DNA from: Deltaproteobacteria bacterium
Lineage (GTDB): Bacteria > Desulfobacterota > JAJRXV01
Reading direction: 5' to 3'
Assembly: GCA_024275075.1 (NCBI GenBank)
Contig: JAJRZU010000066.1
Location: forward strand, 1 to 51,135
Length of the DNA stretch: 51,135 nucleotides
Part shown: piece by piece, positions 3,356 to 27,500 of the stretch
Layout: every line of letters starts with the position of its first letter
Numbering within the stretch: the first letter of the stretch is position 1
Notes under the pieces: model-generated
What the model was told of the DNA's origin: nothing
Databases searched by the model: none
Seen by the model: only the letters and a program-made list of their open reading frames with translations
Translations under genes and position numbers: made by a program

Positions 3356-3922
3356 ATGGATGAGGATCTGCAATATGTTGAGGAAGCGAGGAGCGGCGAT
3401 AAGGAAGCTTTTTCTTTCTTGATAGAGAAGTACCAGAAGCAGATATTTAATTTTATATATCAGTTCTTTCGGGATTACCACCAGAGCCTGGAGGTGACTC
3501 AGGAGACTTTCTTACGGGCGTTTAAGTTCATACACACCTTTCAGTCCGGCAGGAAGTTTTCGACATGGTTATACTCGATCGCGAAGAACCTTTGTATCGA
3601 TGAGATAAAGAAGCGCTCGAAGGTCAACACGATACCGATAAGCGAGGCTCAGAAGCGCGAGAGTCCCGATGACGGCACCTCGATGCTGTATGTGCACAAG
3701 GACCCTGACGCTGAGATGATAAAGTCTGAGGACAAGCGGGCGTTATTAGAGGCGATCGATAAGTTGCCTGTGAAGTATAAGATGGTCATCACGTTATGTT
3801 ATTTTGATGGTATGAGTTATGAGGAGATATCCGAGGTGGTTGAGATGCCGTTAAGCACTGTGAAGGTGAGGATTTTTCGCGCGAAGAAGAAGTTATTGGA
3901 ATATTTGGACGGTAAAATGTAA
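3356..3922 (+). CDS. ECF (group 4) sigma-70 family RNA polymerase sigma factor
   Basis: Region 2 signature ..EAFSFLIEKYQKQIFNFIYQFF..TQETFLRAF..FSTWLYSIAKNLCIDEIKKR.. and region 4.2 HTH ..MSYEEISEVVEMPLSTVKVRIFRAKKKL... An anti-sigma gene follows. Confidence 0.9.
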   Translation: MDEDLQYVEEARSGDKEAFSFLIEKYQKQIFNFIYQFFRDYHQSLEVTQETFLRAFKFIHTFQSGRKFSTWLYSIAKNLCIDEIKKRSKVNTIPISEAQKRESPDDGTSMLYVHKDPDAEMIKSEDKRALLEAIDKLPVKYKMVITLCYFDGMSYEEISEVVEMPLSTVKVRIFRAKKKLLEYLDGKM

Positions 3923-3957
3923 CAAATCATATCTAACCAGAGTAATATTGAGTGAAG

Positions 3958-3987
3958 CGGCAAATGATTGTACGGCAAATGATTGTA
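3958..3987. repeat. perfect tandem duplication of 15 nt (cggcaaatgattgta x2)
   Basis: 3958-3972 and 3973-3987 are identical. The repeat lies in the 134-nt spacer between the sigma and anti-sigma genes. Confidence 0.8.
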
Positions 3988-4056
3988 CTTTTGAATATTT
4001 AGTGATAAGATTAATAATTGGTGGAATATCAGGAATATTGGTACAGGGGTAATGAC

Positions 4057-4731
4057 ATGAGAAAATGTAATGAGATAGAGCCATTGATATATGGTTATAT
4101 AACCGGTGATATCCTCTCTTAGCAAAGGAGGGTGTTAGACGATCATATCAAAGAGTGTGACGAGTGCCTTGATGAGATAATGAGGCTCCAGCGCCTTGAT
4201 ATGAACCTGACGGAGCTGAAGGATGTGGAGGCCGGCCTCTCTGAGGATCTTACTGGTGCGATATTAAGCGAACTGCCGGCGAACATCAAAAGGGCAGGCC
4301 GCGGATACGGTCATCACTTCTTCTCAGCGACGACACTGCTCTCCACGGTTACGGTGGTGCTTGCGGTGCTGGTATTCATCCTCGCCGGCAAGGTGGATCA
4401 GATATCGATCACCTCGAAGGCGCCGAAACCGAAATCGGTGAAGATAATGTTCTTCTCAGAGAAGGCGCAGAATGTATCGTTAGTCGGTGATTTTAACGCC
4501 TGGGGCGTAGACCCCCTATTATTATCAAAGGTAAATGGCAATACCTGGGAAGCGGAAGTGAAGCTGGCGCCGGGTATGTACCAATATAATTTAGTGGTTG
4601 ATGGTAAGAAGTGGATTGCTAACCCGAACTCAAAATCATTAGTGCCAGATGGATTTGGCGGTACGAATTCAGTAGTGATAGTCAATGATAACGGGGGGAA
4701 ACAAATTGAGAGTGTCGGTAAGCAGATTTAA
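4057..4731 (+). CDS. zf-HC2 anti-sigma factor with one TM helix and a C-terminal CBM48/AMPK-beta-like beta-sandwich; in-frame TAG at 4120..4122
   Basis: ATG 4057 gives MRKCNEIEPLIYGYITGDILS-TAG-QRRVLDDHIKECDECLDEI.., the usual anti-sigma N-terminus with H-x3-C-x2-C, in frame with ORF 4132..4731. TM segment is FFSATTLLSTVTVVLAVLVFILAG. The C-terminus VSLVGDFNAWG..W..V.LAPGMYQYNLVVDGKKWIANP is typical of CBM48/E_set. Confidence 0.8.
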
Positions 4732-4763
4732 TAGAGTATTAATTTAAAAAAAGCTTTGATTTT

Positions 4764-4806
4764 ATGAGCCATCTGTATTATTATCGCAGGTGGCTCATTT
4801 GTGTGT
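4764..4806 (+). terminator. hairpin after the anti-sigma gene (possible terminator)
   Basis: 12-bp stem atgagccatctg / caggtggctcat (one G-U pair), 11-nt loop, followed by ttgtgtgt, which is a weak U-tract. Confidence 0.45.
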
Positions 4807-4850
4807 AATAACAAATATTTATAAAAAAATAATGGACAACGGCGTTTATT

Positions 4851-5453
4851 TTGTGTAAAATAGTAAACATATTGAGGGTGTATTTAAAAAACATAGGGGT
4901 TTTGTTCCTTTTTGCGCTGACGCTTTTTGCGTATGCGGATACGTGTCATTCAAGAACGATAGATGACTTGCTGTCTGATAGTAGCGTAACCGCAGATGAT
5001 TCGAAGCGGATAAAAGGTATCTATGACAATATACTGAAGTTTGAAATAAAAGAAGATAAGATACTCTTAATAGTAGAGAATGCGTTGAATAAGGATATGG
5101 GGCCGAAGCGGCTGTTACGGCTTTTGGTGCTAATCTCGAAGTCGGCCGTAGAGGATTTACCGACAGAGGCGTTGATTAATAAGGTATTAGAGGGGTTTGC
5201 CAAGAGCGCGCCTACGGATGTCATAATCAATGAAGCAGAGAGTAAGGTACTATTCTTAAAGAATGCGAAGACAATGTTAAACTATTTGACATTAAAGGGG
5301 TTTGAGGCGACAAAGCCAGAGATGGTGATAAACATGTTAAGCATATATTCGACTCAGGGCTGGGACCCTATAGATTTAAAAAGAGCAATTGAGACAGGTG
5401 GACTTTCAAAGAAGGAATTTCATGAATTATCGATGTTTTTAAAACAAAAATGA
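4851..5453 (+). CDS. hypothetical secreted protein (start uncertain: TTG 4851, TTG 4872 or GTG 4878)
   Basis: Long ORF with an N-terminal hydrophobic signal-like segment GVLFLFALTLFAYA. No motif I recognise. Ends in TGA. Confidence 0.55.
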   Translation: MCKIVNILRVYLKNIGVLFLFALTLFAYADTCHSRTIDDLLSDSSVTADDSKRIKGIYDNILKFEIKEDKILLIVENALNKDMGPKRLLRLLVLISKSAVEDLPTEALINKVLEGFAKSAPTDVIINEAESKVLFLKNAKTMLNYLTLKGFEATKPEMVINMLSIYSTQGWDPIDLKRAIETGGLSKKEFHELSMFLKQK

Positions 5454-5457
5454 GAGC

Positions 5458-8241
5458 ATGAAAAGGAGCGGACCTATGACAGGGGAAGTGAAGCCGGGTA
5501 TGATCACAAAAAAGTGGATTGCCTTTAGATGTTTTTTTCTTTTTCTTTTGACTATCTCCATTCTTATTATTTCAGGTCAAAAAAACTCATTTGCTGCGGG
5601 TATTGTCGGTTCAAAGCATGATTTAGTAGCTATTGATTACCCTTACGGTGTATGTACGGAGTGTCACACCCCGCACTATGCCAACGATATAAGGCTGTGG
5701 CCGAGGGTTTCAAATGCCGCGACTAACCCGGCGGCAATAACAACGCCTGACACAGCCGCTGTCTCAAAGATGTGCCTTGATTGTCATGCGTATGATGTTG
5801 TCACTGATCTGCCGGCGCTACCAGGACCCGGTGGGATGTGGGCATGGGGGATTACGTGGCCGGTACCCAGACAGCTGTTTGATAACGCTGGCAACTGGAT
5901 CTACAAGAAGCATGGCGGTAAAACGTACAAAGACTGCGTCAGGTGCCATACCCATGCGACCGGTTTCGGCCTGCCGCCAATAGACCCCCCAACCTCTGCA
6001 ACATGTTACGACTGTCATGTGTGGGATGATACAACGAATAATGATGATATCGATAATTACACATTCGGTACGCAGGCGACAGTGAATTTTTTAGACAGAG
6101 CGATGATAGATGAAGTTCAGTGGACAACCGGCGGTCATCGCGTACCGGCAGTCGACACTTTGCCTGAGACCTCAAGGCGCGCCGCGCAAAGCGGACCTGA
6201 GTTAGGTTGTGTGGATACGGGCGGCGCTATTCCCAATGGCTGCCATGATGATGCGATACTTCACGGAACGGCAGGTAATCCGTTTAGATTAAAAGTAGTC
6301 GGTGGCGCTACCGGCGCTGATATAATCTCGAATTTGTGTGGTCAGACTATCTGCCATCCGCCGCCGGCAGCGGGTGGAGTGCATATGCTTCATGCCGACC
6401 CGGCGCCAGGCCCTGCAAACCTTTATGAAAAAGGCGTATGTTCAGACTGCCACGATCCGCATGGCGACAGCTCCAATGTAGACGCTTCTTTGGTTAGCGT
6501 CCCGGACATTAATATAAACGCGGCGATGATGCAGCGGGAGGTTGTATGGCGGGACAGGTGGACAGCCGGCGCTTTTGGCGACCCGACAGACACGAACCCG
6601 GTAGTCGTTCCCGCGGATGATAAATTAGAACCGATAACACGATTTCATATAACAGGCGGTAATGACGCTTTAAGCTGGGAGATGGCGGATTATGTCAAGG
6701 ACAGCACATCTTTCAGCGGGGTATGTGAAGCGTGCCATACCGCTGACGGCACAAGCGGGGCCATAACAAGATTCTTCAGGAGAAAAGACGCTGACGGGGA
6801 CACTCAGTTGCCATTTCATGACCTGACCGGCACCAATGCGTGCGCATCATGTCACGAGCACGTGAAAGGGTTTCAGAAGCCAGACATTTGCACGTGTATA
6901 GATAACCCGACAACCGGTACAGCCGGCTGTCACACCGGCGTTGACGCTCAGTTTGCTACCGTTGTAGGCGGAGTTTCATCAGGGGCACGCCAGCATGATA
7001 TAGCTTATGACCCTGTTAACAACCCCAAAGGCAACAACCTGTTAGAGGAGGATTGTGAGAACGTAGACTGCCTTAAGTGCCATGACCTTGATACAAACAG
7101 TAACCATACCGACGGAACGGTGTATTTGGACGCGATCGATACAAAGGCTGGTACCGTGCCGCTTCAGTCTCCTTCAGCATATGCCGATGCGGCGCCCGAG
7201 GGCACCGGCACCATTCAGAGCATAAACGATACTGTGTGGGGTAACATACGCGATGATGGCGGGTACACTACCGGGCAGTGGTGCAGAAACTGTCACGATA
7301 TCGACGGACCGCCCGCCGCGGCGTCAACCAACCTTAATGGTAACGCCGTAGCGCCACCGAACGTAGAGTCTGATTCATCCGGCGCCGCACGCTTCACTAC
7401 GACTGGTCATGGCGCGACATCAGGTACAAACTTCCCGCGGGTCGCACCTAACAATACTGCCGGCAGGACGGCATGTACAGGCTGCCACAACTATCATGGT
7501 AGCGACAACATTCGCATGATCCAGAGAGCCGCGTGGAACGGCAGCGCATGGCAGAAGTGGAACGGTGTAAATGTACCAGAGCCGCTGGACACATCTGCGG
7601 CGGATTACCTGTACAACGGAGACGATGTTAATATCTCGAGCGTTGAACTGTTCTGTCTGGAATCGTGTCATGTTGTTGATTCATTCTCATGGACGACGCC
7701 GCAGCCGCTTTCTTTGGACTTTAGTGATGTAATCACGGCAAGAGGCGGCGCAACGACGAAAAGAGCCCACTATGTCTTTGACTACGTAGGCGGTAACCTT
7801 GGCGCTGATTATGATGCGCACAATGACATTACTTACTATTTCAGCGGCAAAGCGGTAGGGTTTGTGCTCGGCGGTACCGCGGGAACACCGTGGAACGATC
7901 TTGATACCTCTGATAGCAATCCTGCCACCCAGAACCATACATACATCAATGACAGCTCTAAGGGAGAGGCGCAAAAGTTTGTGAACATTATCACCTCGAC
8001 ACCTTCGCCAGGAACTATCAACAGCATATTCAAGGCGATTTGGTACAATGATGGCGTGGATAAGGGCAGAGCGATATGTGTGACATGTCACGATCCGCAC
8101 GGTTCTAATGTTGATGCTACATGGGGATTACCAAACAAGGTTCCTGCCAGCACTGATGATAACATGCTCAGAGGCGAATGGATCACTGGTACGGCATGGG
8201 GAGCGGATGCTGATGAGCCGTGTGATTCATGCCATAAGTAA
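5458..8241 (+). CDS. multihaem c-type cytochrome A (12 CxxCH plus 4 variant motifs)
   Basis: Signal/anchor WIAFRCFFLFLLTISILIISG..SFA. There are 12 canonical CxxCH, several as CxxCHDPHG (doubled-CXXCH type). Alternative start ATG 5476 follows AAGGAG. The C-terminal ~745 aa are paralogous to the end of 15945..19994. Confidence 0.9.
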   Translation: MKRSGPMTGEVKPGMITKKWIAFRCFFLFLLTISILIISGQKNSFAAGIVGSKHDLVAIDYPYGVCTECHTPHYANDIRLWPRVSNAATNPAAITTPDTAAVSKMCLDCHAYDVVTDLPALPGPGGMWAWGITWPVPRQLFDNAGNWIYKKHGGKTYKDCVRCHTHATGFGLPPIDPPTSATCYDCHVWDDTTNNDDIDNYTFGTQATVNFLDRAMIDEVQWTTGGHRVPAVDTLPETSRRAAQSGPELGCVDTGGAIPNGCHDDAILHGTAGNPFRLKVVGGATGADIISNLCGQTICHPPPAAGGVHMLHADPAPGPANLYEKGVCSDCHDPHGDSSNVDASLVSVPDININAAMMQREVVWRDRWTAGAFGDPTDTNPVVVPADDKLEPITRFHITGGNDALSWEMADYVKDSTSFSGVCEACHTADGTSGAITRFFRRKDADGDTQLPFHDLTGTNACASCHEHVKGFQKPDICTCIDNPTTGTAGCHTGVDAQFATVVGGVSSGARQHDIAYDPVNNPKGNNLLEEDCENVDCLKCHDLDTNSNHTDGTVYLDAIDTKAGTVPLQSPSAYADAAPEGTGTIQSINDTVWGNIRDDGGYTTGQWCRNCHDIDGPPAAASTNLNGNAVAPPNVESDSSGAARFTTTGHGATSGTNFPRVAPNNTAGRTACTGCHNYHGSDNIRMIQRAAWNGSAWQKWNGVNVPEPLDTSAADYLYNGDDVNISSVELFCLESCHVVDSFSWTTPQPLSLDFSDVITARGGATTKRAHYVFDYVGGNLGADYDAHNDITYYFSGKAVGFVLGGTAGTPWNDLDTSDSNPATQNHTYINDSSKGEAQKFVNIITSTPSPGTINSIFKAIWYNDGVDKGRAICVTCHDPHGSNVDATWGLPNKVPASTDDNMLRGEWITGTAWGADADEPCDSCHK

Positions 8242-9611: not shown

Positions 9612-12600
9612 ATGAGTTTACGGAAAAGTGGAAGGTTTTTTGTTTATTTTATGTTTGTAGCTGTTTTATGTCTGGGCGGCTATCTGGTCTACGATAATGC
9701 GCAGGCGGACCATTCAACAGGCCGCGCGTGTTATAGTTGCCATACGCTTACAACCGCAGGAGCAGAGCAGACAACGTCTTCTATCCTTACTGGGGCGGCT
9801 CAGGGTGTTCAGAACACTGAGTTGTGCGAGGTGTGTCATACCCAGAAGGAACTGACGGAATTTAACCCCGCGGGGACAGTTTCAAGGCATCCTGTCCATG
9901 TTACGACTAACCAGGCGGGTTATCTCTCAACCCGCGGCGACAACTCGCCGTACCAGGCAGTTAACGCTAATAACTCCATAGAATGCTTTAACTGTCATAA
10001 CTCCAAGCAGGTTACAAAAAGGGGTGACACTACACCAAGCTCTGACGCGAATGCGTACCCTGACCATACATGGGAGCAGATAGACTATCCCGGGCAGGTT
10101 AGTCAGGTCGCACCATGGGACTATCTTGAAAACCATCTCTATGGTACTGAAGGCGGGGTTACAGCCTTAGGCACCTTTTACGATGATTTAAACTATAACG
10201 CCTGTTACGGAGGATCTCCTATACTCGCGAAAAGTACCGCGAACGAGACGATCAACACAGGGCCTACTACTACAAACCCTGTCTTTCCAGGTTGTCATGG
10301 TACGATTGTCGACTCCAAGGGTAAAACAATTCAAGACTATATGACTGTCAATCAGGGAGGAAGAAAAGGAAGCGCCACGATGGGACACGCTATATCCGCT
10401 GACGGCGCTATTATCTCCTGCCGGACATGCCACGACCCGCACGGTAGTACAAGCGCTATCAGGCTGTACACAGGGCCGAACTATGAGTCACAAAACTTTA
10501 ACTCGGTCAACGCGATTTGTAGGGACTGCCACGGATACGATACCGGTACCGGTGGTGCAGCCCCATCGCCAATTACTATTTATGTAAACAACGCAGGCAC
10601 CGCGGAGACAAGGGTTGTTACCGCGCCGGCGCCGCCATGGGTAGGACGTCCATATCTTAACATCCCGCACGGCCTTGAAAGTAACATAAACTCCCCTATA
10701 GAAGGTCAGGCAAATAAATATAATAACGAGGCATGTTGGGAGTGCCACTCTGTTCACCAGCCTCCACCGCCTCCTGATGATGTATCCGTAGAATGTGAGG
10801 TATGTCACGTATGGGATCCGACTACTGACAACGATGATGTCGATAACTATACATTCGGCACCGGTGACTACTCTGACAAAGCTATGATAGACGCGACTCA
10901 GTGGACGACTGCTGGTCACGGCGTACCAGCGGGCAACTTCATGCCGATGACTAATGCAAGATGGCCGTCTAACAATGCTTTCGGCCCTGAACTGAGCTGT
11001 GCGGATACGGGCACGACAGATGGTTGTCACGATCCGAACGTTGCTCACGGTACCGCAACCAACCCGTTCAGGCTTATGGGTAAGACCGGTGTCGGTACAT
11101 ACACTAACACAATTACAAAAGAAGATCATCAAACAGGAGGGGTACAGGCAAACGGACCTGATGGCGTATGTTACAGGACAGACGGTCCCGCATGTCATAA
11201 CCCGGATATAGACACTGACAGACACGACTTTAATGCCGCTTATGCCGGCGGCGTCTGCTTTGACTGCCACGATCCGCATGGCGACAGCTCTAACGCCGAC
11301 CCGACCACAACGCCGATCCCAGACACTAACATAAACGCGGCGATGATCCAAAGAATGCCCGTCGGTGGTGAATGGGTGGCGAATACCCATTATGGAAGGT
11401 TCCCTGACTCAGGCGGAGCTTTTGGTATCGTTACCGCTGCAAACTCATATCCATCAGCAAGGTATGTCGCGACAAACTCAAAAAGCGACTACTACAAGGA
11501 TAATCTTAACTACAGTGGTATATGCGAGACGTGCCATACCGCTGACGGTCCTGGCGCTGTATCTGATGGCGGCAGTATAACAAATTATTTTAGAAGAGAC
11601 AACGGCGACGGCGACGACCTTTCGCTGGTGAATTATCATGATCCTATAGCGACGCCCGAGCAGTGCGCGCTAAAATGCCACTTACACTCAAAGAAATTTG
11701 AGCCCGGCGGCAAGTGTATCGAGTGCCACGCTTCACCGCAGGGTTCTCATCCGGCGATTGTAACGCTGGACTTAACCTCCGGTCAGATAGAGCTTACAGC
11801 CGACGGTGCGAACGGCGCTATGTCCAAGCACGTTGGCGGCTCAACGACGGGTATCACATCGTTTGAATGTGTTATCTGTCACTTAGAAGGCCAGATCGTA
11901 GCCGGTAATCCAGAGCCGAACAGCACTTACCATAAAAACGGTACAGTTGAGCCAAGAGATCAAGCCTCCGGCGGCGAGATCGCGGCCCTTGGCGCTGGCG
12001 GTAGCTACACGCCAACGCTCGACGCGCGAGGCTATGCTACAAACGCGTACTTGTTGAACGCGAACTTCTGCGGCGGATGCCACGACGCTAACGGCGCCGA
12101 ATGGTGGGCTACAAAGGGCGGAAACGCGTTGCAACCATTCAACAACTCAGCTATGTCCGATGCTGACGGCGTCCCCGGTGCGAACGATACGACCACGGTG
12201 CCTGACATCTATTCAAGATATAATAACGTAGGGCTTGGTGAGAACACCGGCGGCACAGGTGACCTCGAGGGTAAGAGCTCGGCTATGTACAGTAAATTCA
12301 CCACGGCGAATTATAATGTTGTGCCGCAGATAATGAAAGCTTATTCTCCGCACGGCAACCCGTCTACTAATGTAACAAAATCAGAGTTTCAGGGTGAGAC
12401 CCCGGGCGTTAATACATTTGTAACGAATCCCGTGGCGTGTCTTAACTGCCACCCCGCGCACGGTTCTGATATCACTGCTTCCGGGGAAACCGGTTATAAT
12501 CAATTAGGCGCGAACGGCGGCGCTATGGTGCGTACCGCTGATCCTTCATTATGCTGGGATTGTCACAGCAAACCAGTTGCGAACGTGTGGGACTTCTACG

Positions 12601-15600
12601 GCGATACTGACAGGGTCAGCGCGAACCCGCTTCAGTGGAGCGTTGGCGGCGGCAACTGGACAAGAGGCACAGGTCCCTTTAACTATAAGGGCGGATACCA
12701 GATGCGAAGTATACATACCCCGGCTAACGCCGGCGGCGTCATCGCATGTGGGGTATGTCACGACCCGCACGGTATCGATACCGCGAACACAGCTAATGAA
12801 TACTTCCTGCTCCCTTCTCTAAGGGTGGGGGCGGGCGACCCGGGCGGATGGGTTACATCCCCTTATAAAGAGGACAGGCCGGGTAACAAAACCGGCTCCG
12901 TAGCGCCTGAAGACCCGACACAGGTCAATGGCGAGCCGTACAAGCTTGCAGGGAAAGGCTGGAACGGCCCTACGTATGCAGACTGGTACGATGGTAACGG
13001 CGCTCCGACTAACCAGAACAAAGGTACAGGCCCAAGGGTGGAGCCTATGACTTCCGGCGGTAGCTTCGCCTACTGTAACCCGCCGGAAATCGGCGGCGGC
13101 TACGGTGACGGCGCTGACGCCACTTATGGCGGCAACGGTCATCAGGGATTCTTCTTGAACGACAACACATTTGGGACAGACGGTATCATGTTGTTTGCCG
13201 GCAAGGCGGGGGATAACTTTGAGCAGGCGCCTGTTACAGTCAATCCGCAGGCAGCGTTTGAAGCTGACGGCGGCGCCACAGGCGTATTCACATTAAACGC
13301 TTTCAGCGGCTTTTGCAAGAACTGCCATTCAGCTACAGACGCTCTTGGCATAGAATATGGATCATGGACGGGACACCACTCGGTATTCGGCGTCACTCCA
13401 TATAACGACGTGTATAATCAGTCGATCGCTCAGTATGTTCACGGCGGTCCGCAGGGTAAAGAGGAAGAGATAAGGCTTCTGGCTACAAACGAGGTGGGTA
13501 GGTCATCTGGCGCCGGCATGAAGTGGGCGATAACCCAGGGTAACTTCACTGTAGGCGCTGAAATGAACTGGCAGATGGAGGCTAACGGGAATAAGGTCAA
13601 CTATCATGAATTTACGTGTTCTAAGTGTCACACTCCTCACTCTTCTGTTATCGACAGGCTGATGAGGACAAACTGTCTGTCAGGCGGTAACACGAGCGAT
13701 GACTCGACCTCAACGCCGGGCTCTGGCACCAACGGTCCGTCGGTTATCGACACGACCGTAGGTAACTGGGTTGATACGGAAACGACGAATAGAGCGGGCT
13801 ATACATATCCGCATCCGTATTTTGCCGCTGTTACCCCTACAGTCGAAGCGTTTACGATGCACTGCCACAACAGCTTTATGTATGTAAACGGCACCGACCC
13901 GGGCTGGGGTATGGGGCAAACAGGGCAAAACGCGGATGGCGTGACCATAACTTATAATGGCGGCTGGCAGAAACTAAGCGCCAACGGAAACGACCCGGGC
14001 GGATGCGCTACGATCGCGTGTCACTCGTTCTTCCCGAACTTTGCGATCGCGACTGCCGAGGGGAGTCCTAACTCGATTCAAAGATCGGGCGCTCACAGGG
14101 TGCATCTGGACTTGGCTTTTGACAGCACGTATACATCAGGAGCTGATCCTGAGTCATTCTATGATTCAGACGGCGACGGCGTGCAGGACAAGTTCGGCCT
14201 TGGCGACCTTGCTCAGCTTGACTGCGATTACTGCCATGCGTATGGGGCAGGCAGTACACCTCCGCGAGATAATGCAAACGCCGCTCCTCACAGGAACGGT
14301 ACTATAGAATTTGCCGACGCGGGTAACCCTGACTTGACGGGCACGACTATCTGCGCTAACTGCCATGCGGATGACGCGGCGGCGAAAGCTAACTGGGGCG
14401 GTAACTCCAACGATGACTACACGCGGCTGGCATGTACAAGCTGTCATTCACAGACCTCGCCGGCGTGGACTATTTTCGGTAATGTCAGAGGCGCGAACGT
14501 GAATGGCGACGGCAGTAACTACGGCTTCTTCATCAATGGCCACGGTTTGGACAGCGGCAGCTTATATGGATGGGATGCGACATCACTCGGCGCCAACTTC
14601 TTAGGTGACCCGGGTACTGATACTGACTCTGACAGCATCGGTGATGACGGTTGTATGTATTGTCATGATATAACATCGCCGCATATAGACGCTAACACTG
14701 CAAACGGCTCGCAGGGCTTCAGGTTTGAGTCAGGTAACTTCCCGAGCACAGCGTCAGTTTCCGCTGTATGCCTTGACTGTCACGAAAGAGCTGACGGACC
14801 TGGCGGCGGCGCGACAAACGCCAGACTGGCGACAGATTCCACCGACCTGATACTTGACCACGACTCCGCGTCGATGTCAGCGGTTCCTGTCAGTTACACA
14901 AGGCTGAACAGTTCAATAACATGGGGTTTTGCGCCTGACTGTAACGATTGTCACGACCTGCACGGCAGTACAAACAGGATGATGATCGGTTCAAACCATA
15001 CGGCAGCGGTTCCACCGGCGCCAGACGCTGTTAACGCGAGGATAACAGACCAGAACGAAGCCGCGTGGACACCTAACAATATAATCGTCGATTACAAGAA
15101 CCCCTTGGCTTTTGAATTAGGTAAGACTACAGCGCCGATAGGCCCTTGTATCACATGCCATAGAAATGGCGCGCCTAACGGTACTGATCATAACAACCAG
15201 AACTCGGTTAATAACGATCACACGCATGGCGGTCCGACAAGTACAGTAACAAGTCCTGTGGTCTGTACGGATTGTCATAAGCATAAGAAGGCGTTCGCTC
15301 CTTCCGCCTGCGACGAATGTCACGGCTGGCCTCCAGGGTACAATGACCCTGGCAAAACGGGAGAGGCAGTAGGTTCTATAGAGCAGCCAACTCTTATAAC
15401 GGCGCCTGAAGCTGGTGCGCATCTATTCCATACCAGGCAGAACGTAGGCACTACCGCTACGCCTGGACAACCGAAACTTGATACCGCATGTGCGGAGCAG
15501 GGCTGTCACGTTCGGATCAGTTCTGGCGCGGCAACGGGTCATAGTACCCCTGACGACCAGACGGCGGAAGTCGATTTTGATATCATAAACGACTATGCGA

Positions 15601-15872
15601 CGGGCACTAACCCGACATATCCGAACCATGCGCAGGGCGACCCGATAATCGTCAAGGATATTGCTGGTGGTACTGGTGATAACTCTGGTCTCGGCGATGG
15701 TTCAAGGGACAGAAACATTGGTAACACTCTTGACTCTGGAGACGCCACTGGTTTGGGTACTGCGACCGGCGGTCAGAGTGACGCTACATGTACAAATATC
15801 TATTGCCACAGTACTGTCGTCAAGCAGGCGTCAGGCGACTGGTGGGTAACAGGTGCGACGCCGCCAAAATGA
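9612..15872 (+). CDS. giant multihaem c-type cytochrome B (27 CxxCH plus CX4CH variants); ends at a TGA that is in frame with the next ORF
   Basis: RBS agagggag. Signal anchor FFVYFMFVAVLCLGGYLVY. I hand-counted 27 canonical CxxCH, plus CATIACH, CAEQGCH and CTNIYCH (CX4CH). The final unit CTNIYCHS..WWVTGATPPK-TGA lacks its partner CxxCH, which lies just past the stop. Confidence 0.9.
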   Translation: MSLRKSGRFFVYFMFVAVLCLGGYLVYDNAQADHSTGRACYSCHTLTTAGAEQTTSSILTGAAQGVQNTELCEVCHTQKELTEFNPAGTVSRHPVHVTTNQAGYLSTRGDNSPYQAVNANNSIECFNCHNSKQVTKRGDTTPSSDANAYPDHTWEQIDYPGQVSQVAPWDYLENHLYGTEGGVTALGTFYDDLNYNACYGGSPILAKSTANETINTGPTTTNPVFPGCHGTIVDSKGKTIQDYMTVNQGGRKGSATMGHAISADGAIISCRTCHDPHGSTSAIRLYTGPNYESQNFNSVNAICRDCHGYDTGTGGAAPSPITIYVNNAGTAETRVVTAPAPPWVGRPYLNIPHGLESNINSPIEGQANKYNNEACWECHSVHQPPPPPDDVSVECEVCHVWDPTTDNDDVDNYTFGTGDYSDKAMIDATQWTTAGHGVPAGNFMPMTNARWPSNNAFGPELSCADTGTTDGCHDPNVAHGTATNPFRLMGKTGVGTYTNTITKEDHQTGGVQANGPDGVCYRTDGPACHNPDIDTDRHDFNAAYAGGVCFDCHDPHGDSSNADPTTTPIPDTNINAAMIQRMPVGGEWVANTHYGRFPDSGGAFGIVTAANSYPSARYVATNSKSDYYKDNLNYSGICETCHTADGPGAVSDGGSITNYFRRDNGDGDDLSLVNYHDPIATPEQCALKCHLHSKKFEPGGKCIECHASPQGSHPAIVTLDLTSGQIELTADGANGAMSKHVGGSTTGITSFECVICHLEGQIVAGNPEPNSTYHKNGTVEPRDQASGGEIAALGAGGSYTPTLDARGYATNAYLLNANFCGGCHDANGAEWWATKGGNALQPFNNSAMSDADGVPGANDTTTVPDIYSRYNNVGLGENTGGTGDLEGKSSAMYSKFTTANYNVVPQIMKAYSPHGNPSTNVTKSEFQGETPGVNTFVTNPVACLNCHPAHGSDITASGETGYNQLGANGGAMVRTADPSLCWDCHSKPVANVWDFYGDTDRVSANPLQWSVGGGNWTRGTGPFNYKGGYQMRSIHTPANAGGVIACGVCHDPHGIDTANTANEYFLLPSLRVGAGDPGGWVTSPYKEDRPGNKTGSVAPEDPTQVNGEPYKLAGKGWNGPTYADWYDGNGAPTNQNKGTGPRVEPMTSGGSFAYCNPPEIGGGYGDGADATYGGNGHQGFFLNDNTFGTDGIMLFAGKAGDNFEQAPVTVNPQAAFEADGGATGVFTLNAFSGFCKNCHSATDALGIEYGSWTGHHSVFGVTPYNDVYNQSIAQYVHGGPQGKEEEIRLLATNEVGRSSGAGMKWAITQGNFTVGAEMNWQMEANGNKVNYHEFTCSKCHTPHSSVIDRLMRTNCLSGGNTSDDSTSTPGSGTNGPSVIDTTVGNWVDTETTNRAGYTYPHPYFAAVTPTVEAFTMHCHNSFMYVNGTDPGWGMGQTGQNADGVTITYNGGWQKLSANGNDPGGCATIACHSFFPNFAIATAEGSPNSIQRSGAHRVHLDLAFDSTYTSGADPESFYDSDGDGVQDKFGLGDLAQLDCDYCHAYGAGSTPPRDNANAAPHRNGTIEFADAGNPDLTGTTICANCHADDAAAKANWGGNSNDDYTRLACTSCHSQTSPAWTIFGNVRGANVNGDGSNYGFFINGHGLDSGSLYGWDATSLGANFLGDPGTDTDSDSIGDDGCMYCHDITSPHIDANTANGSQGFRFESGNFPSTASVSAVCLDCHERADGPGGGATNARLATDSTDLILDHDSASMSAVPVSYTRLNSSITWGFAPDCNDCHDLHGSTNRMMIGSNHTAAVPPAPDAVNARITDQNEAAWTPNNIIVDYKNPLAFELGKTTAPIGPCITCHRNGAPNGTDHNNQNSVNNDHTHGGPTSTVTSPVVCTDCHKHKKAFAPSACDECHGWPPGYNDPGKTGEAVGSIEQPTLITAPEAGAHLFHTRQNVGTTATPGQPKLDTACAEQGCHVRISSGAATGHSTPDDQTAEVDFDIINDYATGTNPTYPNHAQGDPIIVKDIAGGTGDNSGLGDGSRDRNIGNTLDSGDATGLGTATGGQSDATCTNIYCHSTVVKQASGDWWVTGATPPK

Positions 15873-15944
15873 GGTTATACAGTAGTATGTGGCGATTGTC
15901 ACAGCGCGACCAACCCTGCGTCACAGCCTCACCAGACCCATGCG

Positions 15945-18900
15945 GTGACATACGGCTTCTTATGCCAGGATTGTCACAATGGCCGTGGCAGGACAGCCGC
16001 CGCCACAACTGCATATCATGTAAATGGCTATGTAGAGCTGAACATAAGTAAGACGTTAGGGGCAGCGACAGTAACAGGGACATTCAGTTCAACTTATTCA
16101 GTCGCAGCGGGCACAACTAACGATAACCTGCCTGGCGATTATGCGAGAGCTGGATGGTGTGACAACGTTTACTGTCACAGCAATGGCGTAGAAATAAAAG
16201 GCATGGCGGCAACTTATCAGACAGTTGACTGGAATGACTTTGGAACGCTGACATGTTCATCATGTCACGGTACGGGCGGTACGTCAGCACACGGCGAGCC
16301 TGATTACGCGAGTGGCGGAGCAGGCTCGGCAAGCGCTAACAGCCATGAGGCGCATATAGGTAAGGCAGGCCTGAATAATGACAGGCTTGAGTTGCATTGC
16401 AGTGACTGCCATTCGGCTACAGTAGTCGCGGGTTCTGATTACATCAGCGCACCGACTATCAACGCTCCGAACGGCGGAACGCACGTAAACGGCGTTGTGG
16501 ATGTTTCAAGCGCTTCATTTACATTATCATACAACGTAAACGGGCAGAAGAAATGCTATAGTTCTTGCCACGGTACTTATAATACAACAACTGAAATTGC
16601 TTGCGCGCCTCAGTGGGGCGGCGGTTCTAAAAGCGGAGGGTACGGTTCATGCCAGATGTGTCATGATGTCAATTCATGCGATCCTGAAGATGTTGTAAGA
16701 CCTAAGGCACCGACTGATCAGAAACCAGCGGGTACTGCTCACGCGAATAAGATTGACTTCGCTCAGTACACCGGTGCCGGGGCAACCGGTCATGGACTTG
16801 ATTCCGCGTCAACGTATGCGGGCGGTATTAATGCCGGTGCCGGTCTTATTTGGACAGCGGGCACTTTATATGATCCATTTGATGTCGGGACAGCAGATGT
16901 AGGGTGCTTGTCAACAAGCGGTAATATGGCTACGCCGGGAGATGGCTGTCACTCATATCTGTTGCAGTCAGGTACTCGTGACTGGGATAAGTACAAGAGC
17001 CACTATACCGCTAAACCGGCGGCTACACACTCAGGCGATGACTTCTTCTTAGGGAGTAGCTTCCAGTCCAACATTGACGCGCTCTGTGAATATTGTCACG
17101 ATGGAGTTACAGCGCCAGGTCTTTCAGGTGGTAACTTCTCACATACTAAGGGTACGACAGGTTCGGCTCTTACATGGCCATACGTTCCGAAGTGTGTTGA
17201 CTGTCACGATCCGCACGGTGATGGGAATGACTATATGATCAAGTACGCTGTTTCAAGGGATTATGGTAGTCTCGCTAACGGTAACCCTGCTTTGTCTGAC
17301 CTGTCATCACCGAACCTGGGTTCAACGCAGGCGGAGATAGACTTGATGTTGCCTGTTACATTCAATGTGGATCAAGTCACTGGATTTGACGGCGGCATCG
17401 GTAAAGCCGGCGATTATTATCAGGCCAATCCGACAACGAACGGTAACGGTATCTGTCAGGTATGTCATACCCAGAACCTGGTCTATGATAACGAGGCTAT
17501 AAGCGGCACCGCGACTACAACGCACCAGAACTGGCTTGATGCGGCATTAAACAGTCCGTTTGATACTGACGCGCCGGTTCAGGACTTCCTGTCACCGAGC
17601 GGTCGAAGGTGTAGTTCATGTCATAAGCACTTTGAGTGTGATACAGAGAAAGGATTCCCGATACCGAAACCGAATCCGCCTTGTACGCCGGCTCCATACT
17701 GCTCAGATTGTCACGTATGGAACCCGAACGGCGACACGAATCATCCGTTAATGACGACTCAGGCTAACGGCGGTCTTAATGGTCATCCCGGATTCAAGGA
17801 TCCGACTGGTCAGAATGACGACATTGATGATTACACATTCGGTACGACTGACTTTACTAACAGAGCGATGATAGACGGCGTTCAGTGGACATCCGGCGGT
17901 CATGGTACAGCGACGTCAGTTTCGTTGCCAGAGACATCAAAGGGTATAAACGCAGGGCCACAGCATTCATGTACGCCTGGTACTACATCAGATGGTTGTC
18001 ATGATTCTACGGTATTGCACGGAGACGCCGGGAACCCGTTCAGGTTGTTGGTATATAATGCAGCTACCGGCGGGGCCATAATAAATGAGCTTTGTTCAAA
18101 TTGTCACCCGCCACCGACGCTTGCAGGTGTACATAAGCGACATGCTAATGGTAAGACCCCAATGTTTGAAGCTGGTCAATGTACAGACTGTCACGATCCT
18201 CATGGCGAGAGCGCGAGAACGGATGCAGGGTTGACGACTGTCAATGACGCTGACTTAAACGCGGCGATGATTCAGCGGGAGTTAGTCTGGAGAGACAGAT
18301 GGACAGCCGGCGCTTTTGGCGACCCGACAGACACGAACCCGGTAGTCGTTCCCGCGGATGATAAGTTAGAGCCGGTGGTAAGATTCTATAAAGCTGGTGG
18401 TCTTAACGCAACAGCTTGGGATATGAAGGATTATGTCACTGAGTCATCATTAAACAGTGGTGTCTGTGAAGCGTGCCACACAGCTGACACCGTAGGCGAG
18501 CCTGAGACGCAGTTCTTTAGAAGAAAGAACGCTGACGGCAGTACGGAGGCTTCATTACCTTCATTCCACAAGACGGCTAACGCGGATTACTGTACAGCCA
18601 GTTGTCATACGCACGTAAAAGGTTTCGAGAAACCTGACCTGTGTAGTTGCTTGTCATGTCATGCCGGCGTCGACAGGCAGTTTGCTCCGGTTGACGGTTC
18701 AAACGTGTCGTCAGGTCCCCAGCAGCATGACATAGTGTACAATCCACCAACCAGTCCTCCCTCTACAGGGAGTCTTGACGCGGATTGTAATACGGGAGGA
18801 ACTGTAGATTGCCTGAAGTGTCATGACCTTGACACTAATGGTAACCATATGGACACAACGGTTTATTTAAAACCGATAGACTCGACCAAGACAGGCGCTT

Positions 18901-19994
18901 CCCCGTTGACGTCACCTTCAGCATATGCGGAGGCCGCTCCAATGGGTACGGCAGGCGCCCAGAGTATTGGAATGACCGTATGGGGTAATATCAGGTCTGA
19001 TTCTACCGGTACGTATGAGACTGGTGAATGGTGTAGAAGTTGCCACGACCTGAACGGTCCGCCTTCCGCGGCGTCAACCAACCTTAATGGTAACGCCGTA
19101 GCGCCGCCGAACATAGAGTCTGATTCCTCCGGCGCCGCACGCTTCACTACGACGGGTCATGGCGCTCAATCAGGAGCTAACTTACCGCGGGTCGCACCTA
19201 ACCCGGCTACGAATAATGGTAGAGCGGCATGTACAGGCTGTCACAACTATCACGGTAGCGACAACGTTCGCATGATCCAGAGAGCCGCGTGGAACGGTAG
19301 CGCATGGCAGAAGTGGAACGGTGTAAATGTGCCAGAGCCGCTGGACACATCTGCGGCGGATTATGTGTACAACGGTAATTCCACTACTATATCGAGCGTT
19401 GAACTGTTCTGTCTGGAATCGTGTCATGTTGTTGATTCATTCTCAGCTCTGCCGCCGGAACCATCATTGGACTTTAGTGATGTAATCACGGCAAGAGGCG
19501 GCGCAACGACGAAAAGAGCCCACTATGTATTTGACTACGTAGGCGGTAACCTTGGCGCTGATTATGATGCGCACAATGACACCAATTTCTACTTCAGCGG
19601 TAAAGCGGTAGGGTTCGTGCTCGGCGGTACTGCGGGAACTCCGTGGAACGATCTTGATACCTCAGATGGCAATCCTGCCACTCAGAACCATACGTACATC
19701 AATGACAGCTCTAAGGGTGAGAGCGCGAAGTTTACGACTGTTATCACCTCGACACCTTCGCCAGGTACTATCAACAGCATATTCAAGGCTATTTGGTATA
19801 ACGATGGACTGAACAAGGGTAGGGCGATATGTGTGACATGTCATGATCCACACGGTTCTAATGTTGATGCTACATGGGGACTACCAAACAAGAGTCCTTC
19901 CAGTACGGATGATAACATGCTCAGAGGCGCATGGATCAATGGTACGGCATGGGGAGCTGATGCTGACGAGCCATGTGATTCATGTCATAAGTAA
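15945..19994 (+). CDS. multihaem c-type cytochrome C (18 CxxCH plus variants); probably the continuation of 9612..15872
   Basis: Same frame as 9612 (offset 6333 = 3 x 2111). The 24 codons 15873..15944 are open and encode GYTVVCGDCHSATNPASQPHQTHAV, a 19th CxxCH. No RBS precedes GTG 15945 and the ORF has no signal peptide of its own. Confidence 0.85.
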   Translation: MTYGFLCQDCHNGRGRTAAATTAYHVNGYVELNISKTLGAATVTGTFSSTYSVAAGTTNDNLPGDYARAGWCDNVYCHSNGVEIKGMAATYQTVDWNDFGTLTCSSCHGTGGTSAHGEPDYASGGAGSASANSHEAHIGKAGLNNDRLELHCSDCHSATVVAGSDYISAPTINAPNGGTHVNGVVDVSSASFTLSYNVNGQKKCYSSCHGTYNTTTEIACAPQWGGGSKSGGYGSCQMCHDVNSCDPEDVVRPKAPTDQKPAGTAHANKIDFAQYTGAGATGHGLDSASTYAGGINAGAGLIWTAGTLYDPFDVGTADVGCLSTSGNMATPGDGCHSYLLQSGTRDWDKYKSHYTAKPAATHSGDDFFLGSSFQSNIDALCEYCHDGVTAPGLSGGNFSHTKGTTGSALTWPYVPKCVDCHDPHGDGNDYMIKYAVSRDYGSLANGNPALSDLSSPNLGSTQAEIDLMLPVTFNVDQVTGFDGGIGKAGDYYQANPTTNGNGICQVCHTQNLVYDNEAISGTATTTHQNWLDAALNSPFDTDAPVQDFLSPSGRRCSSCHKHFECDTEKGFPIPKPNPPCTPAPYCSDCHVWNPNGDTNHPLMTTQANGGLNGHPGFKDPTGQNDDIDDYTFGTTDFTNRAMIDGVQWTSGGHGTATSVSLPETSKGINAGPQHSCTPGTTSDGCHDSTVLHGDAGNPFRLLVYNAATGGAIINELCSNCHPPPTLAGVHKRHANGKTPMFEAGQCTDCHDPHGESARTDAGLTTVNDADLNAAMIQRELVWRDRWTAGAFGDPTDTNPVVVPADDKLEPVVRFYKAGGLNATAWDMKDYVTESSLNSGVCEACHTADTVGEPETQFFRRKNADGSTEASLPSFHKTANADYCTASCHTHVKGFEKPDLCSCLSCHAGVDRQFAPVDGSNVSSGPQQHDIVYNPPTSPPSTGSLDADCNTGGTVDCLKCHDLDTNGNHMDTTVYLKPIDSTKTGASPLTSPSAYAEAAPMGTAGAQSIGMTVWGNIRSDSTGTYETGEWCRSCHDLNGPPSAASTNLNGNAVAPPNIESDSSGAARFTTTGHGAQSGANLPRVAPNPATNNGRAACTGCHNYHGSDNVRMIQRAAWNGSAWQKWNGVNVPEPLDTSAADYVYNGNSTTISSVELFCLESCHVVDSFSALPPEPSLDFSDVITARGGATTKRAHYVFDYVGGNLGADYDAHNDTNFYFSGKAVGFVLGGTAGTPWNDLDTSDGNPATQNHTYINDSSKGESAKFTTVITSTPSPGTINSIFKAIWYNDGLNKGRAICVTCHDPHGSNVDATWGLPNKSPSSTDDNMLRGAWINGTAWGADADEPCDSCHK

Positions 19995-20245: not shown

Positions 20246-20755
20246 ATGATGAGAAAAATTAGTTTTATTGTTATATTGGTTGTACTATCATTAATGACCG
20301 CGAGTTTCGTGTTTGCAGAAGGAGCGAAGGAAGGCGACGTGACGCCGAAAATAATCCTGAAGGATGTAAGGACTAACCAACCGACAAAGCTCAATGAAAT
20401 AATTAAGGGTAAAGTAACGGTGTTAGTATATATGCAGACATCCTGCGCCGCATGCAGGAAGGAGCTTGAAGCATTAAAGAACATGAAGGATTTTGTGCCA
20501 GAGCTAAATATAATAGCTGTTAGCGTTGATGCCGGCTGCACAAACAGGATTAAGAAGTACATCGACCATTATAAATTTGATTTTATGTTCTTACATGACC
20601 CAAGCTTTACAACTCCAGAGCTGTTTAATTTCTCTTTCACGCCTGCTACCGTCGTAATAGTAAAAGATGGCAAGATAATAGCGTTAAAAGGCGGATATAG
20701 AAAGGGAGACGAGAAAAAGATAATGGAAATTGTGCAGGATGCTTTAAAGAAATAA
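20246..20755 (+). CDS. TlpA/ResA-like thiol:disulfide oxidoreductase (thioredoxin fold, C-A-A-C)
   Basis: RBS aaaggaga. Signal or anchor SFIVILVVLSLMTASFVFA. Redoxin core KGKVTVLVYMQTSCAACRKELEALK...FTPATVVIVKDGKI. Confidence 0.75.
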   Translation: MMRKISFIVILVVLSLMTASFVFAEGAKEGDVTPKIILKDVRTNQPTKLNEIIKGKVTVLVYMQTSCAACRKELEALKNMKDFVPELNIIAVSVDAGCTNRIKKYIDHYKFDFMFLHDPSFTTPELFNFSFTPATVVIVKDGKIIALKGGYRKGDEKKIMEIVQDALKK

Positions 20756-20944: not shown

Positions 20945-22375
20945 TTAAGCTAAATTAAGGTAGTAGAATGAATAGAACCTCTTCTCATCCTGTGAGAGTA
21001 AAGAAAAGGTGTTTTCATATACTTCCTTCGCTTTCTCATATTTCTTGAGGTTATAATAGCAGTCAGCGACATAGAAATTAAGGTCATAAGCCTCAATTCC
21101 TAAGCTTATCAGCTTTAAGTATGCGTCTAAGGACTCCTGGAACTGCCCCTTCTTGTAATACAGATTAGCCATTGTAGTCAGTATCGGGATATCGTCACTA
21201 TGATTCTTATAAGCAAAGCTTAAAAACTTAAGTTTCAAGTCTTCATACTGGAGATGACTTAACAAGTCAACATAGGCTAAAACGTAGTATTTATCACGCT
21301 TAATAGCCTCCTCAAGATACCCGGAAGCTTCTTCATAATCACTTCTCTTTAAGCTTATTGTTGCAAGCTGGTAGTAAATAGCCGGGTCATCAGGGGTTAG
21401 GGTCAATATCTTGTTATAAATGCTCACCGCGTTATCATATTCAATGAAGAACAGATTCTTATCAGCTTCCTGCTTTAATAACCAGGCTTTCTTCGGCGCC
21501 TGCATGTGTGACGGTTCACTAAAAATGGTCTTTAAAATATTTGACAGGAACCTGAACTGCATAGAGATCTTCAAAGTCCTGTTAGCGTTTACAATAGTGA
21601 TATATTGAGAAATTAAAGGCACCTTCTGGAGCGCTAACAAGAAATTTACCACGATATCCTCAATGGGTGTCTTGACGTTATCAACGATAAAAGCTGGGAA
21701 ATATGAAAGGCTTATACTAATGATAACCGGGTCTCGCTGCTCTTGCAGGTCAGTGATATGAACGACCGTTACAGGTACGCCAAGCAATGTGCCTTCGAGT
21801 TTATTGTCTGAATAAGTAAATGAATCAATATCTTCTTTCGGATAATTAAAACCAGGGTTACTCCTAAGCTTCTCTTTAAAGAAATCCAGGTAATCCTCCT
21901 TGATGGATTCATAAACCGGCAGTACCCATATAATCTTCTTGATCAGGCCTAACCGGTGCGCGGCGTACAGATAATTATAAGGAGCATATAGCCGTTTAAA
22001 CTTCGTAGTTATACCGGTATAGGTCTCTAAAAGATCGTAATTATTATTCTGTATCAGCTGCTTGGCTTCTGCTATCTGAGCATCAGGGATACTTGATGTG
22101 ATCTCAAGGTTAGCGTCAACAAGTATAAGCGTTGCGTCTCTTATACCGTTTTTTGCCCAGAGTGCGATGTTATCAGAGCCTATTTCAACTATCTCAACGT
22201 TTCTGACCTTATCTATAAAAACCGCGGCTGGCTCTGGCGATGCTTTTGCGGGTTCTAAAGCTAAGTCAGATCGTATCTTAGTTGCTTTTGGCTCTTTTGT
22301 CCTGGTATTGTAGTAATACAAAGACGCAAAAGCGATGATAATAATAAAAGTTATTGTTACGAATATTTTTTTCAT
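20945..22375 (-). CDS. membrane-anchored TPR-repeat protein; annotated stop TAA (20945..20947) is in frame with 42 further TPR-like codons down to 20816
   Basis: Likely start is ATG 22375 (MKKIFVTITFIIIIAFASLYYY, RBS ggtgga). TPR units include YYQLATISLKRSDYEEASGYLEEAIK, ANLYYKKGQFQESLDAYLKL and VADCYYNLKKYEKAKEVYENTF. After the TAA the frame continues IYLKIDDDEGALKSYESYLKYNKEAAKN... Confidence 0.75.
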   Translation of the reverse strand: MKKIFVTITFIIIIAFASLYYYNTRTKEPKATKIRSDLALEPAKASPEPAAVFIDKVRNVEIVEIGSDNIALWAKNGIRDATLILVDANLEITSSIPDAQIAEAKQLIQNNNYDLLETYTGITTKFKRLYAPYNYLYAAHRLGLIKKIIWVLPVYESIKEDYLDFFKEKLRSNPGFNYPKEDIDSFTYSDNKLEGTLLGVPVTVVHITDLQEQRDPVIISISLSYFPAFIVDNVKTPIEDIVVNFLLALQKVPLISQYITIVNANRTLKISMQFRFLSNILKTIFSEPSHMQAPKKAWLLKQEADKNLFFIEYDNAVSIYNKILTLTPDDPAIYYQLATISLKRSDYEEASGYLEEAIKRDKYYVLAYVDLLSHLQYEDLKLKFLSFAYKNHSDDIPILTTMANLYYKKGQFQESLDAYLKLISLGIEAYDLNFYVADCYYNLKKYEKAKEVYENTFSLLSQDEKRFYSFYYLNLA

Positions 22376-22894
22376 TTTTCCACCTGAAATTAAATTTAAC
22401 AGGCCAGCCTGTTTTTTATGGGGGTTAATTTCCCGCATCTTGTTACTATAAGATTAATCCAGATATGTGGGAGTAGTCCATTAATTTATGAAAAGCTATC
22501 AAAAAACGGTGAATAAATCAAGGAAATAAGTTTAATGAACTAAGTTAATGAACTTTCTCGCGGCAAGCTGACGAGAACCTGCCCTAACCCGCGGGGAATC
22601 AAGCCCATAGATAAAAACCGGTGCGCCTGTTCAGCAAGAATGAAAATAGTTTACAAAAGTCTTGAAACTTTTATTTTATATTTTAGTATTTAGGTATTAT
22701 AAAGTGATTAATAATTTTCTTGTTGATAAATTCATCTTAATACTTTATAAAAAGGGGGTTGCATCAAAATAACTGCGTTTTCTCAAGGAGGAGGCATGAT
22801 GCCTCAGTTATTAAGGGCTTGGTATAGAGGTTGTTAAGGTATAAATAAACTTAATGAGTTATTCTTGACTTATTTCATTAAAAGAGGAGGGCTT

Positions 22895-23764: not shown

Positions 23765-23772
23765 AAATTGTG

Positions 23773-23801
23773 TTGCATATATTTGACATTTCATATATAA
23801 T
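23773..23801 (+). promoter_or_regulatory. sigma70-like promoter
   Basis: TTGCAT (23773-23778), 17 nt, TATAAT (23796-23801). If used, it excludes the TTG 23802 start of the downstream ORF. Confidence 0.4.
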
Positions 23802-23843
23802 TTGCAATCAGTGAGTAAAATACATTTTTTAGAAGGCGATAAA

Positions 23844-27401: not shown

Positions 27402-27500
27402 CAATAGAAAAAATATGGTGACAAAAAGTAACTATTTTATCGATTGTTAAGTATAAGTAGATGTAAAAAAAATCTTTTCAAAAAAGATGAGGAGAAAAAT

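Follow-up and report, generated by a model that had tools for sequence, protein, structure and literature searches.

A signature that recurs in multihaem cytochromes of a deltaproteobacterial gene cluster is part of a reiterated five-haem unit with variable cysteine spacing

What is the role of a signature of about 90 residues that recurs in the large cytochromes of a single gene cluster, and could its widely spaced cysteine pairs hold haem? The question is raised by a 51,135-nucleotide stretch of DNA from a Deltaproteobacteria bacterium (assembly GCA_024275075.1, contig JAJRZU010000066.1; hereafter the window), which encodes five large multihaem c-type cytochromes, each with 12–26 CXXCH motifs. 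An initial annotation, made from the sequence of the window, had described five copies of the signature in four of these proteins. It suggested that the unusual C-Xn-CH sites bind haem and that the signature might serve as a special haem environment, a substrate site or a docking site. Here, we report that the signature belongs to a larger unit with five haem motifs, and we consider it probable that it represents haems 2 and 3 of an electron-wire unit of the MtrC/MtrF/OmcA type in which the haem-3 site has acquired an inserted loop.

The signature and the five-haem unit around it

The signature is found in cytochromes A (5458–8241), B (9612–15872), C (15945–19994) and E (29943–35471), which in an all-against-all BLAST comparison have stretches of 350–1000 residues around it in common. 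Inspection of the translations confirmed one copy in A, one in B (residues 395–488; 10794–11075), one in C (residues 586–701; 17700–18047) and two in E, the first of them at residues 115–192 (30285–30518). All were where they had been placed, except that two borders were off by one nucleotide: the NPFRL end of the copy in A lies at 6291 and not at 6290, while the in-frame start of the short copy in E is 32883 and not 32882. Across these five copies the elements CxxCH, ID, Q, GH, CH, H and PFRL are invariant. The reported spacings of the second cysteine pair were also correct, namely CX8CH in B (CADTGTTDGCH) and C (CTPGTTSDGCH), CX10CH in A (CVDTGGAIPNGCH), CX3CH in the first copy of E (E1; CTTYCH) and a canonical motif in the second (E2; CYECH). 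The count of five, real as these copies are, was incomplete. Indeed, a sixth clear copy is present in C at residues 236–354 (16650–17006), where it reads KIDFAQY..GHG..CX13CH and is not followed by an NPFRL tail, and weak relatives with canonical motifs occur in A (residues 603–689), C (1030–1118) and B (1639–1695). A local hidden Markov model recovered the window copies with E-values of 1e-13 to 1e-33, and a profile built from the six copies recovered the window proteins with E-values of 4e-29 to 4e-50 from a library of 1.84 billion representative proteins. The recurrence of the signature is therefore far beyond chance.

This profile search of protein databases, which had been proposed along with the initial annotation, yielded 68 proteins at E ≤ 1e-3, 64 of them outside the window. 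Nearly all relatives are giant multihaem cytochromes; short fragments aside, nearly all have lengths of 1000–5341 residues, often with several copies of the signature, and they are named either 'hypothetical protein' or 'CxxxxCH...CXXCH cytochrome family protein' in the databases, with no function given. The family consensus reads CxxCH..D.DDF....G..A.ID...W...GHG...G.Y...N.AA......C.YCHD..V.H....NPFRL. When species genomes of GTDB were scanned via the block CxDCHDPHG, the unit described below was detected at 51 loci, including Thermodesulfovibrio/Nitrospirota, Desulfobulbia, Geobacter sp. OR-1, G. argillaceus, Geomonas sp. Red32, Geothermobacter hydrogeniphilus, Anaeromyxobacter, Acidobacteriota and Calditrichota. 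The same scan yielded no relatives with protein A, and the alignment of the signature offered no conserved stretch for it. Counting both searches, roughly 115 genomes and contigs have the unit. A word-indexed protein search gave no match with the signature by itself, only three outside relatives with protein A, and no match at E ≤ 1e-5 when repeated with an alignment of 67 copies. One relative of 3944 residues (P0013) carries three identical copies at residues 1273–1366, 2013–2106 and 2753–2846, spaced by exactly 740 residues, which shows that a large unit with the pentahaem block inside it was amplified in tandem very recently.

The borders of the signature are arbitrary, since conservation continues into a five-haem unit that ends in CxDCHDPHGD; the signature spans haems 2 and 3 of this reiterated unit and is no free-standing domain. 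We defined the unit by adding 30 upstream and 95 downstream residues to each copy, which gave the pattern [CX2/4CH]-[CXXCH]-[CXnCH]-[CX2-7CH]-[CxDCHDPHGD]. In most of the 78 unit copies, the cysteines of the five sites are separated by 4, 2, 2, 2 and 2 residues, respectively. An alignment of 33 units contains five invariant or near-invariant Cys-Cys-His triplets together with four more invariant histidines and the block CxDCHDPHG. Five proximal and four further histidines would be the number of ligands needed by five bis-histidine haems if one ligand were external.

Each of the six window units, all on the plus strand, has five C-Xn-CH sites in the conserved order. The unit of B (10734–11285; residues 375–558) comprises CWECH, CEVCH, GHG, the CX8CH site (10998–11030), NPFRL, CX7CH and CFDCHDPHGD, with spacings of 2, 2, 8, 7 and 2, and that of A (5935–6468; residues 160–337) comprises CVRCH, CYDCH, GHR, CX10CH (6208–6246), NPFRL, CX4CH and CSDCHDPHGD (2, 2, 10, 4, 2). 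The second unit of C, referred to as C2 (17610–18209; residues 556–755), reads CSSCH, CSDCH, GHG, CX8CH (17970–18002), NPFRL, CSNCH and CTDCHDPHGE (2, 2, 8, 2, 2). The first unit of C (16554–17222; residues 204–426), which includes the copy missed initially, consists of CX3CH, CQMCH, KIDFAQY..GHG, CX13CH (16905–16952), CEYCH and a fifth site ending in DPHGD. In E, unit E1 (30228–30731; residues 96–263) carries CX4CH, CSSCH, GHG, CX3CH, NPFRL, CLDCH and CWDCHDPHGD (4, 2, 3, 2, 2), and unit E2 (32754–33185; residues 938–1081) carries CX4CH, CFDCH, GHG, CYECH, DPFRL, CX3CH and CIDCHDPHGD (4, 2, 2, 3, 2).

Similarity to domain IV of MtrF

The signature had not been recognised as a named domain. 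This holds insofar as Pfam and NCBIfam lack a model devoted to it, but the unit in which it resides matches the pentahaem domain of MtrC and MtrF. The Pfam model of domains II/IV of these proteins (PF22113) covers residues 95–264 of E, and thus unit E1, at 67.7 bits (cut-off 30), and it matches 20 of the 33 family units at E < 1e-3. All other Pfam and NCBIfam matches on the signature were to generic cytochrome models. TIGR01904 matches haems 1–2 of unit E2 (residues 915–972 of E; 29.5 bits, cut-off 27), so that its CXXCH is the first CxxCH of the signature. Its CX4CH-CXXCH motif is also present in E1, whereas haem 1 of the A, B and C2 units is a CXXCH that TIGR01904 does not match.

When the five-haem profile (A4) was compared with the PDB, positions 8–164 aligned with residues 469–624 of MtrF (3PMQ, 3pmq_A), with a full E-value of 5.5e-7 and a domain E-value of 1.6e-5. 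This segment, to which the unit of B was likewise aligned, is domain IV of MtrF with haems 6–10, and all five of its motifs are in register with the unit profile. A comparison of the unit with MtrF by hhalign gave a probability of 92% and an E-value of 5.8e-7. As a control, the cysteines and histidines of the MtrF segment were kept fixed and the remainder was shuffled (n = 60). The real score of 46.7 was above 60 of 60 controls, which scored 29.4 ± 5.4 with a maximum of 44.2; the signal beyond the haem-ligand pattern is real but modest. In the alignment, the CxxCH of the signature corresponds to haem 7 of MtrF, GHG to 'IHGLH', the CXnCH site to haem 8 and NPFRL to QPLAL. Haem 8 is part of the main octahaem chain of MtrF (10-9-8-6-1-3-4-5), while haem 7 forms a side branch beside a beta-barrel domain (PMC3279761). 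Loss of haem at the position of haem 8 would therefore cut the wire.

Several observations weigh against an MtrC/MtrF-type unit with regular haem sites. PF22113 scores 22 bits on A, which is below the cut-off of 30, and it matches neither C nor the unit of B by itself. The cysteine and histidine pattern alone accounts for around 60% of the hhalign score against MtrF, so that common descent with the MtrC domain, rather than convergent haem spacing, is likely and not more than that. The structural predictions were of limited help: the AlphaFold model of the signature is of moderate quality (predicted local distance difference test (pLDDT) of 74, falling to approximately 45–50 at residues 51–70, where the loop begins), it had no fold match in the PDB with Foldseek, and the AlphaFold (AF2) model of the whole unit was unusable (pLDDT 47.5). 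Haem attachment at the long-spaced sites is inferred from sequence comparison, and the known long-spaced sites of MccA and SirA need dedicated lyases, of which none was seen in the window or in two syntenic contigs. PDB sequence searches with A, the segments of B and E, or the profile of the signature returned generic CxxCH matches or noise only; among these searches, MtrF was reached with the five-haem profile alone.

A probable long-spaced haem site with a variable loop

The spacing that had drawn attention to the signature is not one of its general properties. Among 131 copies, the second site (haem 3 of the unit) is CXXCH in 111, CX3/4CH in 6 and CX5-24CH in 14, and all 55 copies from the GTDB loci are canonical at this position. 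In the truncated relative P0005, approximately 28 residues separate the two cysteines, so that n at this one homologous site takes values of 2, 3, 5, 6, 8, 10, 11, 13, 14, 18, 23, 24 and ~28. The nearest canonical copies to those of A, B and C are found in P0011 and P0012 (..GPELLCTDCHDRDVPHG..), at 57–63% identity, and the CADTGTTDGCH of B aligns with their CTDCH; the nearest long-loop copy is 60–61% identical, i.e., no closer than the canonical ones, which are as near to A, B and C as these three are to each other. Residues C1, C4, H5, G41, H42, C78, H79 and H85 are invariant in the 67 aligned copies, and the first cysteine of the second site nearly so. Paralogues within the window also differ by insertions: where C has CSC-LS-CH, A has CTCIDNPTTGTAGCH (CTC-IDNPTTGTAG-CH), with eight extra residues, and a CX8CH in E corresponds to CLNCH in B. 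Likewise, haem 4 of the unit is expanded to CX4-11CH in the window lineage. The alignment of haem 3, its retained ligands, the insertions between paralogues and the expansion at haem 4 therefore point to a normal haem site with an inserted loop, that is, a C-Xn-CH with n > 4 that is homologous to a canonical CXXCH and has kept its proximal histidine. As the initial annotation proposed, the long-spaced cysteine pairs are most likely haem sites, given the canonical motif at the same place in 111 of the 131 copies and the invariance of the following histidine and two more histidines.

Alternatively, the two cysteines could form a disulfide, perhaps as a redox switch, in which case the site would lack haem and the signature would hold a single one. 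The cysteines are 8–13 residues apart without another cysteine partner nearby, and the AlphaFold model has low certainty in the loop region. MtrC-family proteins possess a functional CX8C disulfide, although it is located in a beta-barrel domain. We nevertheless regard this explanation as improbable. The second cysteine is always followed by histidine, the site is aligned with a canonical CXXCH in 85% of the copies and, by alignment, it takes the place of haem 8, the main-chain link of MtrF. In addition, the first cysteine is retained in 14 of 14 long-loop copies, and both candidate distal histidines are invariant in all of them; across the 67 aligned copies, the histidine after the second cysteine, the GHG histidine and the histidine six residues downstream are kept without exception. 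A decayed haem site was also considered and rejected, as were the disulfide and the catalytic site discussed next.

The precedent of long spacing, for which MccA had been cited at the outset, is apt. Haem-binding motifs with spacings of CX3, CX4, CX11, CX15 and CX17 are listed in the literature (PMC11492766), and our full-text search retrieved no paper mentioning CX8CH, CX10CH or CX13CH. In MccA and SirA, a CX15CH motif is found at an active-site haem that needs its own lyase. By analogy, the long-spaced site could be a specialised catalytic or substrate-binding haem site whose loop provides active-site residues and that requires a dedicated lyase, and the strong conservation of the signature between its two haems would fit such a role. 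The features of the loop make this very unlikely: its length ranges from 3 to ~28 residues among close relatives, it contains neither histidine nor cysteine, its only conserved residue is the terminal glycine, and most family members lack it altogether. Furthermore, both haems have candidate bis-histidine ligation, the PDB searches gave no significant similarity to MccA or SirA, and neither the window nor the syntenic contigs contain a lyase gene. The suggestion of a special substrate or docking site thus found no support; the odd spacing reflects a lineage-specific variable loop without conserved ligands. OmcZ offers another precedent, as one of its haems is bound via CX14CH, with the intervening loop looped out and situated in a subunit interface (PMC9473688). 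An OmcZ variant in which the loop was deleted to leave CXXCH still matures, and Shewanella was able to express it but not the native motif (bioRxiv 10.64898/2026.07.18.739370).

Under the reading that we favour, a normal haem site with an inserted loop, the five-haem unit would be reiterated in giant multihaem c-type cytochromes to form an electron wire. Both C-Xn-CH sites of the signature would hold haem c via two thioether bonds, with the histidine after each second cysteine as the proximal ligand and, as likely distal ligands, the GHG histidine and the histidine six residues past the second site. The aromatic and acidic residues of D.DD[FY], ID..[QE]W and NPFRL may pack both haems. The first site would be equivalent to haem 7 of MtrF, on the side branch, and the long-spaced site to haem 8, which belongs to the main chain. 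In the lineage of the window, a loop rich in glycine, aspartate and threonine, 8–13 residues long (up to ~28 in relatives), would have been inserted at haem 3, and often at haem 4 as well, between the two cysteines. This loop might bulge outward as proposed by analogy with the CX14CH of OmcZ, leaving the haem site itself unaltered.

The loops could themselves be functional surfaces selected in this lineage, for instance acidic patches that bind cations or minerals, or contacts between domains as in OmcZ, and be matured with the help of the thioredoxin encoded nearby. We view this as a tentative possibility. The loops are enriched in aspartate (17.5% vs 8.2%) and glycine (20% vs 11.5%), and the last loop residue is glycine in 13 of 14 long loops, at a place where 76 of 111 canonical sites have tyrosine. 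Insertions recur at haem 3, haem 4 and other sites of the same lineage, and the loop of OmcZ does sit in a subunit interface. On the other hand, the loops show little conservation of either length or sequence, which is what tolerated insertions would be expected to show.

With regard to maturation, genes for CcsBA, ResBC or CcmF were found neither in the 51-kb window nor in two syntenic contigs (L052 and L053, which carry the relatives P0003 and P0004). Directly after C, an exported thioredoxin-fold protein with a CAAC motif is encoded on the plus strand (20246–20755). A 66% identical orthologue directly follows P0003 (L052, 4647–5156), and this conserved synteny speaks for a contribution to loop maturation. 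The best NCBIfam match of the window protein is ResA, with 52 bits far under the cut-off of 170, which speaks against such a contribution. The protein is a candidate apocytochrome thiol reductase that might keep the distant cysteines reduced. It is conceivable, if far from established in our judgement, that the maturation system of this lineage loads haem on C-Xn-CH motifs of almost any length, past the literature maximum of CX17CH, maybe with help from this thioredoxin, and that the acidic, glycine-rich loops are cation-, mineral- or partner-binding surfaces of a giant MtrC-like wire.

Genomic setting and comparison with known cytochromes

Long spacing extends beyond the signature. Further sites of this kind are CX10CH in A (residues 478–492; 6889–6933), CX7CH in B (residues 520–529; 11169–11198), CX8CH in E (residues 1373–1383), and CX7CH (residue 387) and CX9CH (residue 767) in the fifth cytochrome, the 12-haem D2 (27444–29852). 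Two of them align with a canonical CXXCH of a paralogue, and nearly every 'CH' dipeptide in the window cytochromes has a cysteine at most 14 residues upstream.

The whole cluster (3356–5453 plus 20945–29852 of the window) is syntenic in the two contigs L052 and L053, which are Joint Genome Institute (JGI) metagenome contigs, at 44–71% identity. The conserved genes encode an extracytoplasmic function (ECF) sigma factor, a CBM48-domain protein, a 200-residue unknown protein, the cytochromes, the thioredoxin, a tetratricopeptide repeat (TPR) protein on the minus strand, a CarboxypepD_reg protein with three haem motifs, a Reg_prop propeller protein and D2. Over their last ~890 residues (6200–8241 and 17900–19994), A and C are 59% identical, which points to duplication inside the cluster. 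Elsewhere in the window, a 478-residue protein with five MopE-type putative metal-binding repeats and 24 cysteines (44739–46175) is preceded by an FG-GAP/beta-helix protein (41573–44728), and an invasin-like Big_1 protein is encoded at 36623–39412. None of the sequencing runs searched for this stretch contained it.

The boundary between B and C is unusual. The stop codon of B is a TGA (15870–15872) in frame with C, whereas 19 of the 22 open reading frames of the window end in TAA. The 24 codons leading from B to C (gap 15870–15944) read GYTVVCGDCHSATNPASQPHQTHA, which adds one more CxxCH, and C as called has no signal peptide. Both P0003 and P0004 are uninterrupted across this point. B and C may therefore be one gene of ~3460 residues that was split by mutation or error or that is read through. 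Selenocysteine at the in-frame TGA was unsupported: the stop aligns with aspartate in P0003, and the downstream fold has a z-score of -1.4.

With these results, a previously unrecognised signature becomes an annotatable unit, a strongly conserved MtrC/MtrF-like pentahaem block of the giant cytochromes of Geobacter, Desulfobulbia, Nitrospirota, Anaeromyxobacter and others, which current Pfam models detect only patchily. Haem counts based on CXXCH or CX2-5CH would miss at least nine sites in the window. The range of natural lengths at one homologous haem site also provides a test set for two points, namely the distance that can be allowed between the cysteines and the lyase and thiol-reduction systems that cope with it. 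The result gives no indication of a new catalytic centre; its relevance lies mainly in cytochrome c biogenesis and in the annotation of giant cytochromes.

Compared with known systems, MccA of Wolinella and SirA of Shewanella resemble the window cytochromes in the long spacing of haem-binding cysteines, but their CX15CH has a catalytic loop of fixed length and a dedicated lyase gene, whereas the loops here are variable and no lyase gene is linked. OmcZ of Geobacter sulfurreducens, to which no sequence relationship of the window units was found, is likewise an extracellular multihaem cytochrome with a long loop between thioether cysteines that is dispensable for haem binding. It differs in having one fixed CX14CH, as opposed to n = 2 to ~28 at one homologous site and several expanded sites per protein. 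The 'CxxxxCH...CxxCH' domain of Geobacter (TIGR01904/PF09698), which gave P0003 and P0004 their JGI names, spans haems 1–2 of the unit, but the model ends before ID..W..GHG..CXnCH..NPFRL. The pentahaem domains II/IV of MtrC, MtrF and OmcA share with the unit the order and similar spacing of the five haem motifs, the distal-histidine 'HG' that separates haems 2 and 3 and, past haem 3, a P.[FL].L motif. These domains combine a parallel triad and a perpendicular pair of haems with flanking split beta-barrels, whereas the unit is defined here by its sequence. Its first site is usually CX4CH, and its inter-haem signature (D.DDF, ID..W..GHG, NPFRL, CxDCHDPHGD) is far more conserved. Finally, while MtrC, MtrF and OmcA contain two such domains per decahaem protein, the units described here are strung together in proteins of 900–5300 residues.

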